From a virus, in IMG/VR virus record IMGVR_UViG_3300025597_000012: a stretch of 64,000 bases of DNA. The stretch is one strand, 5' to 3'. Shown piece by piece: positions 49,786 to 55,379 of this stretch (position 1 is its first letter; the number at the start of each line of letters is the position of its first letter). A program made the translations under genes and the position numbers. Below the pieces are notes generated by a model, which was not told the origin of the DNA, made no database searches, and saw nothing but the letters and a program-made list of their open reading frames with translations.

Positions 49786-49790
49786 ATTTG

Positions 49791-49875
49791 TGAGAGTGGC
49801 TGGAGTCGAACCAGCACCCTTGCGGGACTACAGTTTTACAGACTGCTCCACCTAACCGATAGGTAGCTCACTCTC
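49791..49875 (-). tRNA. tRNA-Tyr (GTA), type II
   Basis: Anticodon arm GCAGT-CTGTAAA-ACTGT; variable arm TCCC-GCAA-GGGT. Confidence 0.8.
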
Positions 49876-49881
49876 AAATAG

Positions 49882-49967
49882 CGGAAACGAAAGGACTCGA
49901 ACCTTCAACCCAAATTAACGAGTAACGGTTTAGCAAACCGCTGCAGTACCATTATGCTTACGCTTCC
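49882..49967 (-). tRNA. tRNA-Ser (GCT), type II
   Basis: Anticodon loop TTGCTAA; long variable arm; acceptor GGAAGCG/CGTTTCC. Confidence 0.7.
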
Positions 49968-49972
49968 AATAG

Positions 49973-50056
49973 CGGTAGAGACAGGAATCGAACCTGTACG
50001 GCTATTACACCTTCATGGTTTTCAAGACCAATAAGCCCTCTCATTTGCGCTCTACC
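49973..50056 (-). tRNA. tRNA-Ser (TGA), type II
   Basis: Anticodon loop CTTGAAA; 84 nt; acceptor GGTAGAG/CTCTACC. Confidence 0.7.
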
Positions 50057-50062
50057 AATATG

Positions 50063-50148
50063 TACTCCTGACTGGACTCGAACCAGCACGTCCATTTCTG
50101 GACAAGGGATTTTAAGTCCCTCGTGTCTACCAATTCCACCACAGGAGC
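50063..50148 (-). tRNA. tRNA-Leu (TAA), type II
   Basis: D-arm GTG-GAATTGGTAGA-CAC; anticodon arm AGGGA-CTTAAAA-TCCCT. Confidence 0.8.
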
Positions 50149-50153
50149 ATATG

Positions 50154-50237
50154 TAGCCTCGGAGAGACTCGAACTCTCACGTCCTTACGGACACTAGCTC
50201 CTAAGGCTAGCGCGTCTACCAATTCCGCCACAAGGCC
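50154..50237 (-). tRNA. tRNA-Leu (TAG), type II
   Basis: D-arm GCG-GAATTGGTAGA-CGC; anticodon arm CTAGC-CTTAGGA-GCTAG. Confidence 0.8.
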
Positions 50238-50238
50238 A

Positions 50239-50269
50239 ATAAAAAACCCCGACTATTGCTCGCCGGGGT
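50239..50269 (-). terminator. Intrinsic terminator (7-bp GC stem then U6AUU) 2 nt upstream of tRNA-Leu(TAG); attenuator terminator of array B
   Basis: Hairpin plus T-run on the minus strand. Confidence 0.7.
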
Positions 50270-50300
50270 TTGAGGTTAAAGACCGTAGTCTAAAACAAGT

Positions 50301-50369
50301 TTACATAGTATTCCCAGCTCGATTTTTACTCGATAAACTGAGGGAATAATATGTGTTGTTTGTCTTCAT
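50301..50369 (-). CDS. Leader peptide MKTNNTYYSLSLSSKNRAGNTM (22 aa) of tRNA array B
   Basis: ATG 11 nt from the predicted TSS. Eight consecutive codons TAT TAT TCC CTC AGT TTA TCG AGT cover all five downstream tRNAs: Tyr-GTA, Ser-TGA, Leu-TAG, Ser-GCT, Leu-TAA. Confidence 0.6.
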   Translation of the reverse strand: MKTNNTYYSLSLSSKNRAGNTM

Positions 50370-50386
50370 TGCGTTTGAAAGGAATA

Positions 50387-50418
50387 CAAATATACGAAAA
50401 ATATTTGAAACTACCAAA
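50387..50418 (-). promoter_or_regulatory. Promoter TTTG-N20-TATATTTG for the array B leader
   Basis: Extended consensus copy. Confidence 0.55.
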
Positions 50419-50424
50419 TTTTTA

Positions 50425-52368
50425 TTAATAAATATTTATTGCTAGTTTTTCTTTAAATAACTGCTTTTGGTAAAAGCGTTGTTTTAAAAATGAATATCTA
50501 TCGTAAGATTTGTTAATATCATATAATAAATTAGCTAATAAAGAGTTACCAACAGAAGCTATAAAAGTATTTATTTTTTGAAATAACGCTCTGAAATACA
50601 AGATATTAGTTTCTCTTGTAGGAAGGTGAATCTTTACTGATTTAGGTACTCTTACTGGCGGTGCTTCATTTACTGTTACCTGAACAGTATCTGTTCCTAC
50701 TGCACCATTGTTATCAGTAACTGTTAATGTAAATGTATATATTCCGGCTGCTAAACCGCTAACTATAGTAGTTGGTGAAGTAGGTGTTTCTATTAAATGT
50801 GCTGTAGGCCCACTTGTTTTTGTCCAATTATAAGAAGAAATAGTGCCATCTGTATCAGTCCCGCTACCATTTAAAGTTGCACTATTAGCAGGAAGAGTTA
50901 TAATTTTATCTTCTCCTGCATTTGCAACTGGGGCTATATTTTGTGCAGCAATTACAGTAATTATTACATTAGAACTGCCTGTTGCACCGTTATTATCAGT
51001 AACTGTAAGTCTAAAAGTATATATACCTGTAGATAAAGCACTTACAACCGTTGATGCGGAATTAGGTGATTGTATAGTAGCATTTGTAGGGCCACTAACT
51101 TGAGTCCAAGCATATGAAGAAATAGTCCCATCACTATCCGAACCGGTTCCGTTTAAAGTCACAGAACTTGCTGGTGCTTGTATAGATTGATTATTTCCTG
51201 CATTTGCAGTGGGTGGGGTATTTCCAACACAATTTGTTGTATATACTATTCCCGGTGTAACATCTATATCCGATGGAGAATTATCTGCTAATTTTGTATT
51301 TCCACAAATTATATTATCTGTGTTATATCTATTTGGATAATTTCCTCCATTATCATCAACACTAATATCAAAAGTTTGAAGAGAACCGCGAGAACCTGTT
51401 CTATTATTCTTGATAATAAATGTAGTATTCTCTACAGGAATTGTATTTCTTGGAGAAACAATAATAGCCCAAGGCCATACAAGACTATGGTCTAAACCAT
51501 CTCTTGTAGCTGAAGCAGGAAGAAATCCACTATGATTAATAGTATTATTTTCAATTCTTACATAAGTTCCTCCAAGTGAAGCAATACCCCAAACATAAGT
51601 ATAATCAATATTATTATCATGAATATACACTTTTGAATAAAGTCCTATATTAATACCGTTACCTTGACCATCACTAATTTCAAGACCTGCATTAGTAATT
51701 GTATTATTATAAATTTCACTTATACCAAGTTCAGCATCAGAAAGTTGAATAGCGGCACGACCTGTTTTATCAAATATGTTATGGTGAATTTTAAAATTAC
51801 CAAGGCGTGTCGGTTTATATTGTCCTTGAGTTGCAGGCACTCCATTACAAACAATAGGATTTCTATCTAACCAAAGAGCATTAGGGTCTGTAGAACCACA
51901 GTACATACCTTCGTATGTAATATTTCTTACTCTACAGTGATGAACTTCAATATTATTTATATACCAGTTAGGATATTGTAATGATGGGTCACAACTAGCT
52001 TCATTTTTAATCCAAAAACCAAAGGCTCCACCATCTATATCTATGTTAGAAACTTCTATATCAGAAACTCTTCCATGTAAAGAACATCCTGTTGAAACAA
52101 AACCATAGGTATCTGCTGAACCAGTTCCTAAAATTTTAATATGTGTACAATGTTCAATATCAAATGATACTTGAACTTGTCCGCCTTCATTTATAATGGT
52201 GATAGGCTGGTCAGCAGTACCATGTACTTCTGCCATATAAAAATAACTTCTAGGATTATCTGAAGCTCTAAGTACAATAGTATCTCCCGGATTAAAAATA
52301 CCCGGACTATTGATACCATTAAACATGTAACCGTTGTCTCCCTGTTTACCGGGATAATGTATTGCCAT
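50425..52368 (-). CDS. Tailspike/depolymerase candidate: right-handed beta-helix (NNTI/HDNNI repeats) with two C-terminal PKD/Ig-like repeats
   Basis: …IYNNTITNAGLEISDGQGNGINIG…IHDNNIDYT…IENNTINHSG… and duplicated …NAG(N/E)…TLNG(T/S)G(S/T)D(S/T)DGTISSY.WT.(V/T)SGP… segments. Confidence 0.7.
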   Translation of the reverse strand: MAIHYPGKQGDNGYMFNGINSPGIFNPGDTIVLRASDNPRSYFYMAEVHGTADQPITIINEGGQVQVSFDIEHCTHIKILGTGSADTYGFVSTGCSLHGRVSDIEVSNIDIDGGAFGFWIKNEASCDPSLQYPNWYINNIEVHHCRVRNITYEGMYCGSTDPNALWLDRNPIVCNGVPATQGQYKPTRLGNFKIHHNIFDKTGRAAIQLSDAELGISEIYNNTITNAGLEISDGQGNGINIGLYSKVYIHDNNIDYTYVWGIASLGGTYVRIENNTINHSGFLPASATRDGLDHSLVWPWAIIVSPRNTIPVENTTFIIKNNRTGSRGSLQTFDISVDDNGGNYPNRYNTDNIICGNTKLADNSPSDIDVTPGIVYTTNCVGNTPPTANAGNNQSIQAPASSVTLNGTGSDSDGTISSYAWTQVSGPTNATIQSPNSASTVVSALSTGIYTFRLTVTDNNGATGSSNVIITVIAAQNIAPVANAGEDKIITLPANSATLNGSGTDTDGTISSYNWTKTSGPTAHLIETPTSPTTIVSGLAAGIYTFTLTVTDNNGAVGTDTVQVTVNEAPPVRVPKSVKIHLPTRETNILYFRALFQKINTFIASVGNSLLANLLYDINKSYDRYSFLKQRFYQKQLFKEKLAINIY

Positions 52369-53243: not shown

Positions 53244-53255
53244 TGGTTTTATTTG

Positions 53256-53331
53256 TGGAATCTATGGGCATCGAACCCATCTGGTATTCTGCTTGCAAGG
53301 CAGACGACCACTCCAAGCAGTCCCAGACCCC
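53256..53331 (-). tRNA. tRNA-Ala (TGC)
   Basis: Anticodon arm TCTGC-CTTGCAA-GCAGA; acceptor GGGGTCT/AGATTCC with G3:U70; unusual G8. Confidence 0.65.
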
Positions 53332-53335
53332 AAAT

Positions 53336-53456
53336 GCGGGGGACTACGGCCCCCTAAAGATGTCTTATTAGGTTTCATCTCTGTCCCGGATTACGCTAGC
53401 GAGCTACCGGGGAAACCACGCTACATACTTTCGTAGAGGTTATGCGGGTTACACTG
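53336..53456 (-). ncRNA. Unresolved ~120-nt structured spacer between tRNA-Ala and tRNA-Ile; hairpin-rich but no canonical cloverleaf found
   Basis: GGGGG-CCGTAGT-CCCCC and TAGCG…CGCTA stems. Confidence 0.2.
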
Positions 53457-53529
53457 TGCTCACGCTAAGACTCGAACTTAGACTCTCTCGCGTATCAGGC
53501 GAGAGCTTTAACCATTAAGCTACATGAGC
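53457..53529 (-). tRNA. tRNA-Ile (GAT)
   Basis: Anticodon arm CTCGC-CTGATAC-GCGAG; T-arm CTAAG-TTCGAGT-CTTAG. Confidence 0.8.
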
Positions 53530-53581
53530 TGGAGAGGGACAGGTTATTTATACCTTCAAAGGACTCCCTCAGACCTCTTCG

Positions 53582-53654
53582 TACTCTCAAAGGGATTCGA
53601 ACCCTAAATTGCCTGTGTATAAGACAGGAGTTTTCACCGTTAAACTATGAGAGC
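53582..53654 (-). tRNA. tRNA-Ile (TAT) (AUA-decoding, or a modified-Met type)
   Basis: Anticodon arm CCTGT-CTTATAC-ACAGG; acceptor GCTCTCA/TGAGAGT. Confidence 0.55.
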
Positions 53655-53659
53655 AAGTA

Positions 53660-53740
53660 AAGAGAGTGGGATTAGATTTCCGGGGATTGACCCAACCTGT
53701 GTCCTAATCTTATTTATCCTTGTACGGAGGCACACTCTCT
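53660..53740 (-). ncRNA. tRNA-like element (~80 nt) with 7-bp terminal pairing AGAGAGT/ACTCTCT but no canonical T-loop
   Basis: Pairing of the two ends is seen; no cloverleaf could be built. Confidence 0.25.
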
Positions 53741-53801
53741 TTGAATGGTCGGGCGGATTGCTTCTTTCAGCCTCAGACATTAATTACAATGTTGCCCGAT
53801 G

Positions 53802-53874
53802 CGGTCTATCACGGATTCGAACCGAGACTACCGCATAGACAGTGCGGCGTGTTCAACCATTACACTAATAGACC
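53802..53874 (-). tRNA. tRNA-Asp (GTC)
   Basis: Anticodon arm CCGCA-CTGTCTA-TGCGG; acceptor GGTCTAT/ATAGACC; overlaps the 3' end of the upstream ORF by ~15 nt. Confidence 0.8.
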
Positions 53875-54504
53875 ATAAACTTTATCCATGTTTGTTTTTC
53901 CGTTGCCATGAATAATCAACGGCTGAGTACCAGTTTTTTTATTAATCAGGATTCCATGTCTGTACTCAAAGTCATCTTCTGATTCAAAAGCTACAGATTG
54001 AAATAAATCACAGTTGGTATCCAACTTCATGTTATATTTATCTCTGTGCTTCAGATAAATTTCTGCTAAGTTAACTTGGTCATTATCACTATGTTTTATT
54101 GGATAATCCTCAAACATCTTGATAAATAAATCTACATTAACAAAGCATGCACCACCATTCAGATATTTCCAATCACTTTTTACTTTAGGATATTTTTCTG
54201 CCCAATCTGAATAAGGCCAGCATCCTTTTTCTGCGTTAAATATAATAGAATCAATATCATCTATTCTATCTATTGCTTGTTGCATTGTACCCAAAACTAT
54301 GATGTCATAAGTGTCTAGGATAAACAAGTGAGTACAATCTGTTTGCTTTGCATAGTTATAAGCGTTAACCATTTTACTACCATAAGCTTTATAGGTATCA
54401 GTCAGAATATCATAATTCCAATCAAACCTATCAAGTGAATCTTTAAACTGTTTAAACCCTTCGTGGTTTAAGTTGGTTGCTGTTCCTATTACGTTTACTT
54501 TCAT
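53860..54504 (-). CDS. Hypothetical protein, possible glycosyltransferase-like
   Basis: ORF; weak resemblance only. Confidence 0.35.
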   Translation of the reverse strand: MKVNVIGTATNLNHEGFKQFKDSLDRFDWNYDILTDTYKAYGSKMVNAYNYAKQTDCTHLFILDTYDIIVLGTMQQAIDRIDDIDSIIFNAEKGCWPYSDWAEKYPKVKSDWKYLNGGACFVNVDLFIKMFEDYPIKHSDNDQVNLAEIYLKHRDKYNMKLDTNCDLFQSVAFESEDDFEYRHGILINKKTGTQPLIIHGNGKTNMDKVYGLLV

Positions 54505-55289
54505 TTGAATGGATTATAATAAATAGATATTGTATTATTCTTATAACCCTGAACGGTTTCGTGATAGGTTTTCCATTGTTCAGAAGCATGGTTTTCTTTC
54601 CATTTCTGGTATGGTGTTCCTCCTGTATCTATGTGTTCTATCTCTATATGAGGTAAGAATACACTTTTAAACCCTGATAGTCTTGCTCTTATAGACATAA
54701 GGACATCATCAAATCCGTATAAACTAGGTTGGTATAAATAACCTATTTTATCAAGTAAAGCTGCTGAGTGCATAACACAAGTACCCATCACATGATTTAC
54801 TTGTTCTACTACTACCCATTTTTCACCGGGCTGGTGTTGAAGCATTAGTAATTCTGACTTATAAAAATCAGTTCTATTTGGTGATTCCCAACAATCTTTT
54901 CTTTTCAAGCCCACCTGTCCAATAGTATTGTCACGGCGAAAAACTTCTTCCATCTGTTCTATCCAACCTGATTGATGTATTACTACATCATCATCAATTT
55001 TAACACAATTCTCTCCGGGTTTTCTTTCTTTCCATGCTAAATTAATAGCTTCAGCAGTTCCTAGATTTTTATCATTCCAGATAACTTTATCAATTACAGA
55101 AAAAATTCCATTTGATTCAGAAAAATCTTCTATTATTTCTTTTGTTCTAGTAGTATAGGAATTTACAGAAAGTATTAATCTGTGTGAATCCCAGTCAACT
55201 GTTTTTTCTAAAGAATCTAATGTTTTATAAAGATATGTATCTTTATCATTATCTTCAGTACAATAAACAGCCATTGCTATTAAAGCCAT
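54501..55289 (-). CDS. Glycosyltransferase family 2-like; start moved to the internal Met at 55289 because the track start (55331) lies inside tRNA-Glu
   Basis: …NDKNLGTAEAINLAWKE…CVKIDDDVVI… (DxD) and YGFDDVLMSIRARLSGFK. Confidence 0.55.
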   Translation of the reverse strand: MALIAMAVYCTEDNDKDTYLYKTLDSLEKTVDWDSHRLILSVNSYTTRTKEIIEDFSESNGIFSVIDKVIWNDKNLGTAEAINLAWKERKPGENCVKIDDDVVIHQSGWIEQMEEVFRRDNTIGQVGLKRKDCWESPNRTDFYKSELLMLQHQPGEKWVVVEQVNHVMGTCVMHSAALLDKIGYLYQPSLYGFDDVLMSIRARLSGFKSVFLPHIEIEHIDTGGTPYQKWKENHASEQWKTYHETVQGYKNNTISIYYNPFK

Positions 55290-55304
55290 TGGTTTTATTT
55301 TTAG

Positions 55305-55379
55305 TATTCTGGAAGGGACTCGAACCCTCACTGACCACAGTGAAAGTGTGGTGACTTATTCCAATTTGTCAACCAGAAC
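55305..55379 (-). tRNA. tRNA-Glu (TTC)
   Basis: Anticodon arm CCACA-CTTTCAC-TGTGG; acceptor GTTCTGG/CCAGAAT. Confidence 0.75.

Follow-up and report, generated by a model that had tools for sequence, protein, structure and literature searches.

Why should a block of five transfer RNA (tRNA) genes in a virus genome be preceded by a short open reading frame (ORF) whose codons call for those same tRNAs? This question is raised by a locus in the IMG/VR virus record IMGVR_UViG_3300025597_000012, analyzed here as a stretch of 64,000 nucleotides (nt) and herein referred to as the window. The locus, herein named unit B, comprises a promoter, a leader ORF, an intrinsic terminator, and five tRNA genes (array B), all located on the minus strand of the window. 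In an initial annotation, made from the letters of the sequence, it was described as a leader-peptide attenuator. The observation was confirmed in this study, and the analysis supports ribosome-mediated attenuation of the classical kind, here acting on tRNA genes. Unit B probably acts as a ribosome-mediated (leader-peptide) transcription attenuator that would tie transcription of the five tRNAs to the speed at which their codons are decoded. Support for this reading comes from the occurrence of the same layout three times in the window, from co-variation of leaders and arrays in related phages, from antiterminators specific for their own terminators, and from the 1:2 hairpin of leader B.

Unit B starts immediately downstream of a gene for a PKD-domain protein (647 amino acids), which has its 3' end at 50425 on the minus strand. 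The promoter begins 7 nt past the stop of this gene and was located at 50418..50387, with TTTG at 50418-50415, a spacer of 20 nt, and TATATTTG at 50394-50387. A promoter had been annotated at this place and is indeed present, but it is of the Bacteroidota -33/-7 type. A promoter of the sigma-70 type was rejected; the site is also weakly flagged in a sigma-70 scan. In total, 14 copies of the -33/-7 motif were found in the window against 3.25 expected, and the motif is present at all three leaders analyzed there. The leader ORF (50369..50301) consists of 22 codons followed by TAA, begins about 11-17 nt past the -7 motif, and is translated as MKTNNTYYSLSLSSKNRAGNTM, in full agreement with the initial annotation. 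The 11-nt untranslated leader that had also been reported rests on an inferred transcription start. Codons 7-14, located at 50351..50328, are TAT TAT TCC CTC AGT TTA TCG AGT, encoding Tyr Tyr Ser Leu Ser Leu Ser Ser; they are herein referred to as the regulatory or core codons. Thus, a short ORF and a plausible promoter are found on the same transcript, upstream of the tRNA genes.

The intrinsic terminator of unit B occupies 50271..50241 and includes a stem (50271-50262 / 50253-50244), an 8-nt loop, and six U residues (50246-50241). Its core stem, CCCCGGC/GUCGGGG, has 7 base pairs (bp) including one G-U pair and reaches 10 bp with the A/U extension; the free energy predicted for the hairpin (50271..50244) is -16.6 kcal/mol. 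The leader stop codon is separated from the hairpin by 32 nt and the end of the U-tract from tRNA-Leu(UAG) by 3 nt, so the annotated distance, the 7-bp GC hairpin with U6, and its position abutting this tRNA were all recovered. Because the terminator ends 3 nt before tRNA-Leu(UAG) and leaves no space for a promoter, array B can be expressed only by read-through. An intrinsic terminator is located between the leader ORF and the tRNAs in all 18 leaders found in this study.

The five genes of array B are tRNA-Leu(UAG) at 50237..50153, tRNA-Leu(UAA) at 50148..50062, a probable tRNA-Ser(UGA) with an atypical D-arm at 50056..49973, tRNA-Ser(GCU) at 49967..49881, and tRNA-Tyr(GUA) at 49875..49790, which is the last gene and is directly followed by the next -33/-7 promoter motif (49786-49755). 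Four of the five tRNAs that had been annotated were called by ARAGORN with default settings. The fifth, Ser(UGA), is probable rather than certain. It was detected neither by default ARAGORN nor by the Rfam tRNA model and lies in the 94-nt gap between the called Leu(UAA) and Ser(GCU) genes. The candidate combines a perfect acceptor stem of 7 bp with the T-loop TTCGATT and the anticodon loop CTTGAAA. With 35.6 bits (E=4e-4), it matches the long-arm tRNA-Sec model, and it can be aligned with the Ser(tga) genes of the phages Lbo-JY46 and phi4:1. Additionally, Ser(tga) is called by ARAGORN in the Leu/Ser/Tyr arrays of the related sequences L027 and L036 and in the Leu/Ser array of Lbo-JY46.

All eight consecutive regulatory codons fall within the codon boxes of the five downstream tRNAs, and every tRNA is represented. 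The initial annotation had gone further, claiming a match isoacceptor by isoacceptor. This claim holds at the level of codon boxes; under strict wobble, with U34 reading only A and G, the match drops to 6/8, because TCC and CTC require U34 to read C. Accordingly, the strict-wobble version was rejected for these two codons and the box-level version was kept. As a baseline for chance, 18.9% of the codons in the long genes of the phage itself are cognate to the array B set. With this baseline, a run of eight cognate codons within 21 has a probability of about 2e-5, and among the 374 small ATG-initiated ORFs of the window (15-45 codons), leader B ranks first; the runner-up has a run of 6. The earlier statement that chance is a very unlikely explanation was therefore upheld. 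As a speculation, B-type leaders may use the recurrent TCC and CTC codons on purpose for their weak U34:C reading, which would make the leader more sensitive.

Folding of leader B follows the three-state logic of the trp attenuator. The minimum free energy of the whole leader RNA is -41.9 kcal/mol (z=-4.85), and none of 200 shuffled sequences was equally stable. The 1:2 hairpin (50354..50303; 5' strand 50354-50330, 3' strand 50322-50303), which would serve as an anti-antiterminator and likely as a pause hairpin, includes the regulatory codons in its 5' strand and has a predicted energy of -16.9 kcal/mol, equalled by 0.2% of shuffles; inclusion of the regulatory codons in such a hairpin is less clear in several of the other leaders. 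Region 2, GCUGGG (50318..50313), has two alternative partners, namely region 1 and the 5' arm of the terminator, CCCGGC (50267-50262). The duplex with the latter is predicted at -12.3 kcal/mol (z=-2.5). This antiterminator and the terminator are mutually exclusive; GCUGGG ends 9 nt before the stop codon and would be masked by a ribosome located there.

A G-rich segment located just past the core codons and complementary to the 5' arm of the leader's own terminator was found in all 12 leaders first examined. In these leaders, predicted pairing with the own terminator averages -13.2 kcal/mol versus -8.9 kcal/mol with other terminators, a difference reached in none of 20000 permutations (p<5e-5). 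The same specificity was seen in six further leaders, those of L027 and L036 (-17.8 vs. -12.1 kcal/mol). A thermodynamic switch was rejected, since equilibrium folding predicts a formed terminator (P about 0.96) regardless of the ribosome position. Equilibrium folding was replaced by a kinetic model, in which the transcript is cut before the 3' arm of the terminator and folded with ribosome masks. In this model, the terminator arm of leader B is sequestered with P=0.88 when the ribosome is stalled in the core, with P=0.28 without a ribosome, and with P=0.42 when the ribosome is at the stop codon. Three-state behavior was found in 7 of the 12 leaders.

These folding results also bear on a reading with the same sensor and a different output. 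In it, the leader senses decoding speed, but what is regulated is RNA processing or stability, e.g., access of RNase P or RNase E to the precursor, altered by a ribosome that stalls or passes, and the hairpin with its U-tract mainly stabilizes the 3' end of the leader RNA. Such a role would suit a hairpin separated by just 3-8 nt from the site at which RNase P cleaves the first tRNA and predicted to be folded at equilibrium; moreover, a Glu-rich ORF in L014 that enters a tRNA-Glu gene with no terminator between them (described below) hints at coupling of translation and processing in this clade. A GC hairpin followed by U5-6 is, however, the signature of an intrinsic terminator, and the reading assigns no role to the terminator-specific complementary segment present in every leader. 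We consider regulation at the level of processing unlikely and prefer transcription attenuation.

The promoter-leader-terminator-tRNA layout was found three times in the window, in front of arrays of 7, 5, and 12 tRNAs, herein named A, B, and C. The three strongest minus-strand terminator-like sites with a U-tract in the region each adjoin the first tRNA of an array. Unit A (49171-48408, minus strand) contains the leader MKQFQHTRFWFTPTISGGGCTTCN at 49078-49004 and a terminator at 48981-48955, followed by tRNAs for Pro, Thr, Phe, Gln, His, Arg(ACG), and Trp(CCA). Within this leader, the stretch QFQHTRFWFTPT has 12 of 12 codons cognate to the array and uses all seven of its tRNAs (P about 2e-7). 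Unit C (57062-53255, minus strand) contains a leader at 57013-56921, MRKNIAINMICKEVGRD..., and a terminator at 56901-56875. Its 12 tRNAs, for Lys, Cys, Val, Arg(UCU), Asn, Met, Gly, Glu, Asp, Ile(UAU), Ile(GAU), and Ala, are spread across 3.6 kb with inserted ORFs. Leader C contains a run in which 16 of 16 codons are cognate to the array, and each of the twelve tRNAs is represented (P about 3e-3). Each of the three leaders scores high only against its own array and is top-ranked among the 374 small ORFs. Together, the three arrays include 24 tRNAs for all 20 amino acids, each tRNA being represented in a leader. Three tRNAs missed by default detection were pointed to by the leaders: the Ser(UGA) candidate of array B, tRNA-Trp(CCA) of array A (48480-48408, minus strand), called by ARAGORN only after its threshold had been slightly lowered, and tRNA-Gly(UCC) of array C (55531-55460, minus strand).

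The terminase gene places the phage of the window among crAss-like phages. By this gene, the closest cultured relatives are Lbo-JY46 (49% identity) and the Cellulophaga phages phi4:1 and phi17:2 (31%), and more distant relatives were binned with metagenome-assembled genomes (MAGs) of Bacteroidota. The same design was found in six other phage genomes or contigs, including the cultured Cellulophaga phage phi4:1 and Lbo-JY46. The tRNAs of these relatives are regrouped, and most leaders change accordingly. Lbo-JY46 has the same three units, with the leaders MKNFNTYYSLSLSLS.., MKITRQHTQFWFPT.., and MINSIDIRNIDIVCAEGVNKC..; the first of these is the homologue of leader B, as are MTNINSYYSLSLSLLSANGETM in L027 and MKNLNSYLLSLSYLSL.. 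in L036. In phi4:1, the leader QRLHLQELEQP is located upstream of a Pro-Glu-Gln-His-Leu-Leu-Arg(ACG) array, TKTGITVIDKTKGARA upstream of Ala-Lys-Ile-Gly-Met-Asp-Thr-Val-Arg(UCU)-Met, and NYCTYNNSNWSFSY upstream of Tyr-Ser-Ser-Asn-Trp-Phe. The three phi4:1 leaders are found in NC_021788 at positions 87065, about 88025, and 89771. In L014, a regrouped Pro-Gln-His-Arg-Leu-Tyr-Glu array is preceded by the leader ..HSYRPQQLLQ.., and an Ala-Gly-Asp-Asn-Trp-Thr-Arg(UCU)-Phe-Cys array by ..RNNWFNNAAAFTTTDCG... In L036, the Pro/Thr/Phe array has taken up tRNAs for Asn and Asp, and its leader, QNWHNNTFNFQPDT, includes N and D.

This co-variation was quantified by the longest run of cognate codons for 18 leaders against 18 arrays. 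The mean run is 9.0 for the leader's own array versus 2.96 for the others (permutation p<1e-5), and the true assignment of leaders to arrays scored best in each of the six genomes or contigs that carry two or more arrays. Of 17 informative cases for Arg, Leu, and Ser, 14 have the codon box of the isoacceptor carried by the array; one CGT codon in leader 1 of L027 is an exception. At aligned positions in leaders of the window and Lbo-JY46, Ser codons are exchanged between TCC and AGT, a pattern that points to selection for the identity of the amino acid or tRNA and not for the nucleotide sequence. This conservation of amino acids also lends indirect support to translation of the leader. A positional search for a hairpin with a T-run at most 12 nt upstream of a tRNA matched only the first tRNAs of arrays. 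An ATG-initiated ORF ending 23-43 nt upstream of the hairpin was found in 18 of the 19 cases, the remaining one being leader 2 of phi4:1, which has a GTG start. In the 12 manually analyzed leaders, the distance from the stop codon to the hairpin is 23-35 nt.

Co-variation of this kind bears directly on the possibility that the terminator is a constitutive leaky one, setting a fixed low level of tRNA transcription or ending an upstream transcript, with the ORF acting against Rho or having no function and with no codon-specific regulation. Partial terminators often serve phages as valves, and codon-specific regulation is a prediction. Nevertheless, a leaky terminator can account neither for leader composition that tracks the arrays through several independent regroupings, nor for Arg codon boxes that track the isoacceptor, nor for the segment in each leader complementary to its own terminator; this explanation is therefore very unlikely. 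A T-box-like RNA with multiple specifiers is still harder to reconcile with these data. In such an RNA, tRNA anticodons would read the codons directly, with no ribosome involved, and stabilize an antiterminator. T-box elements do couple tRNA status to antitermination, and the leader RNA is highly structured. Yet the codons are in frame with an AUG, the stop codon is found at a conserved distance from the hairpin in the 12 leaders, and eight to seventeen different specifiers would be without precedent. Neither a T-box match, at gathering or permissive thresholds of the covariance model, nor any other Rfam match was found, and no conserved acceptor-end motif was seen. We regard a T-box-like element as highly improbable. 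Finally, a spurious ORF beside the terminator of the upstream gene, conceivable as small ORFs are plentiful in the window, can be dismissed, given the probability calculated for leader B alone and a design that recurs three times in the window and, with co-variation, in six other genomes or contigs.

Under ribosome-mediated attenuation, the sequence of events in unit B would be as follows. The nascent RNA would be translated from the AUG located about 11 nt past the transcription start. With plentiful Tyr-, Ser-, and Leu-tRNAs, the ribosome would pass codons 7-14 and reach the UAA, where its footprint would mask region 2; the terminator hairpin would then form, and RNA polymerase would stop. 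If any cognate aminoacyl-tRNA were scarce, the ribosome would lag within codons 7-14, opening the 1:2 hairpin and freeing region 2. Free region 2 would pair with the emerging CCCGGC arm, the terminator would be blocked, and the polymerase would enter the array. From the read-through transcript, the five tRNAs would be released by RNase P and 3' processing. Without translation, region 2 would be retained in the 1:2 hairpin and termination would prevail. The circuit would thus be one of negative feedback, in which the products of the operon, charged tRNAs, shut the operon off. Since a stall at any core codon should suffice, each leader would act as an OR gate or as a cumulative gauge of speed over its array. 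The three units (5, 7, and 12 tRNAs) would place the whole 24-tRNA complement of the phage under demand-driven control.

Several points weigh against this reading. Both translation of the leader and codon-dependent read-through are predicted from the sequence. U34 anticodons do not normally read TCC and CTC, and both codons may be decoded by host tRNAs. Because only one to three codons sample each tRNA, the sensitivity of a leader to a single tRNA may be low. The antiterminator of leader B has just 6 bp, and 2.3% of shuffles pair equally well. Because the terminator is always folded at equilibrium, the switch must be kinetic, and in five of the 12 leaders (winC, JY46_B, JY46_C, phi41_2, and phi41_3) the footprint model does not separate a stalled ribosome from one at the stop codon. 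Leader B of Lbo-JY46 retains Tyr and AGT codons, and no Tyr or Ser(GCU) tRNA was detected for it; the leader of L019 is wholly mismatched to its short array. Lastly, array C contains an internal promoter-like motif, which suggests that some tRNAs are not controlled by an attenuator alone.

This motif is a full -33/-7 match at 56696-56665 on the minus strand, ending exactly at the first nucleotide of tRNA-Val. It either represents an internal promoter, from which transcription would start inside or at the tRNA and so bypass attenuator C, or is a chance match. Array C also contains a Cys/His-rich ORF resembling an HNH-type endonuclease (55978-55511, minus strand), which has its own promoter-like motif and overlaps tRNA-Gly by approximately 20 nt at its 3' end. 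No Pfam match was found for this ORF at the thresholds used, and it looks like a mobile insertion that splits the array. Two glycosyltransferase genes (53860-55331) are located within array C as well. The spacers among tRNA-Asp, Ile(UAU), Ile(GAU), and Ala (53255-53874, minus strand) are unusually long (51-146 nt) and GC-rich; no Rfam match was found in them.

Additional observations were made in the relatives. In L019 (6230-6658), the leader MNTFLRPSLSLYSQHLYAGQGNSV, which has an antiterminator of 9 bp and whose terminator is very strong (-19.9 kcal/mol), precedes just the Pro, Val, and Gly tRNAs, after which an endonuclease-like ORF interrupts the array; this leader looks like one that has outlived most of its array. 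In L027 (5181-5615), the Leu/Ser/Tyr array also carries a suppressor-type tRNA(CUA), and its leader ends with UAG rather than UAA, the next in-frame stop, UAA, being four codons further on. With this stop codon and this tRNA in one unit, the suppressor level could shift the site at which the ribosome stops. The Glu-rich ORF of L014 (5498-5661), MKVDSHIQEQEIEGEELNALIV*, follows a promoter motif, and its last codons overlap the 5' end of tRNA-Glu(UUC); no terminator is present, and the ORF may represent a different, translation-coupled control of a single tRNA. The host deposited for Lbo-JY46 (L021, PP438436.1) is the cyanobacterium Leptolyngbya. The Bacteroidota -33/-7 motif was found at all three of its leader promoters, its terminase relatives occur in Bacteroidota MAGs, and the host assignment may deserve a second look. 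Nothing relevant was found in the literature on Lbo-JY46.

The relatives were sought with several baits. The terminase, used as bait in IMG/VR, yielded arrays at two of seven loci; in a metagenome scan, it yielded 80 loci, with arrays only in L027 and L036. A genome scan with the same bait gave four MAG contigs, three of which were binned as Bacteroidota and one, a short fragment, as Betaproteobacteria; no arrays were found in the three MAG contigs checked (L104-L106). With the neighboring ferritin-like gene as bait, 12 loci were found, none of them syntenic and none with arrays. The exact 5' sequence pattern of tRNA-Leu gave one match, at an unrelated locus, and the leader B DNA pattern ACATATTATNNNCTCNNNTTATC gave 18 chance matches, none of them near tRNAs.

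Control of tRNA genes is thought to act mainly at promoters, through growth-rate and stringent control, and via processing. To our knowledge, no leader peptide is known that gates the transcription of tRNAs by probing their own decoding activity. No report of leader-peptide attenuation of tRNA genes was found in a full-text literature search, which was incomplete in coverage and so is not proof of absence. If confirmed, the mechanism would put attenuation to a new use, in which the supply of tRNAs is subject to direct feedback by the product and a single switch serves up to 12 tRNAs. A broader conclusion is possible, though we hold it only tentatively: an aquatic clade of crAss-like phages may run a complete tRNA complement (24 tRNAs, 20 amino acids) as self-regulating supply circuits, with phage tRNAs induced only when host pools fail, e.g., upon host shut-off or under an anticodon-nuclease defense. 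If true, these would be the first tRNA genes autoregulated by ribosome-mediated attenuation, as well as an inducible counter-defense. The idea bears on why phages carry tRNAs and when these are needed, the relevant variable being the decoding speed at specific codon boxes during infection. It can be tested now, because the same design is present in the cultured phages phi4:1 and Lbo-JY46. In addition, the leaders provide an independent check on tRNA annotation and could serve as compact natural sensors of tRNA availability.

Among known phage tRNA clusters, that of crAss001 (L126, 1625-5807) is syntenic, being located upstream of the terminase gene and including a Dps/ferritin-like gene. In this array, no leader ORF and no terminator were found, and the promoter directly adjoins the first tRNA, tRNA-Gln. 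The tRNA array of Bacteroides phage DAC19 (L023) is likewise without leader and terminator. Thus, the attenuators are a feature of one aquatic clade and not of phage tRNA arrays in general, and the gut Bacteroides phages crAss001 and DAC19 provide a useful natural contrast. With regard to known RNA families, no Rfam family matched leader B at the gathering score; the best match was Phe_leader (17.5 bits against 55, E=1.1), confined to the terminator part. Leader A matched Trp_leader below the threshold (33.9 bits against 41, E=7e-4).

T-box elements resemble the phage leaders in that the status of tRNAs is read by codon-anticodon pairing and translated into a choice between terminator and antiterminator in front of translation-related genes. 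They differ in acting without a ribosome, in having one specifier codon, in sensing uncharged tRNA via its acceptor end, and in being found mainly in Firmicutes. Another counterpart is pheM-pheST of Escherichia coli, in which a Phe-rich leader controls phenylalanyl-tRNA synthetase. Here too, a component of the translation apparatus is controlled through leader-peptide attenuation by the level of charged tRNA; however, the target is a synthetase rather than a tRNA, a single amino acid is sensed, and the system is chromosomal.

The enterobacterial attenuators trpL, hisL, pheL, leuL, thrL, and ilvL have the same order of elements as the phage units: a promoter, an ORF with regulatory codons, the 1:2 hairpin, the 2:3 antiterminator, the 3:4 terminator, and the regulated genes. 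Like the thr and ilv leaders, the phage leaders sense several amino acids, but their valency is far higher, from 3 to 11 amino acids and up to 12 tRNAs. They occur in Bacteroidota phages, have promoters of the -33/-7 type, lack a Shine-Dalgarno sequence, and share no sequence homology with the enterobacterial attenuators. A long run of a single codon, typical of enterobacterial leaders, is replaced by one to three codons per tRNA, and, unlike in those leaders, the match extends down to the codon boxes of isoacceptors. Finally, the genes regulated are those for tRNAs and not for biosynthetic enzymes, so that the molecules sensed by the phage leaders would be the products of the operon itself.

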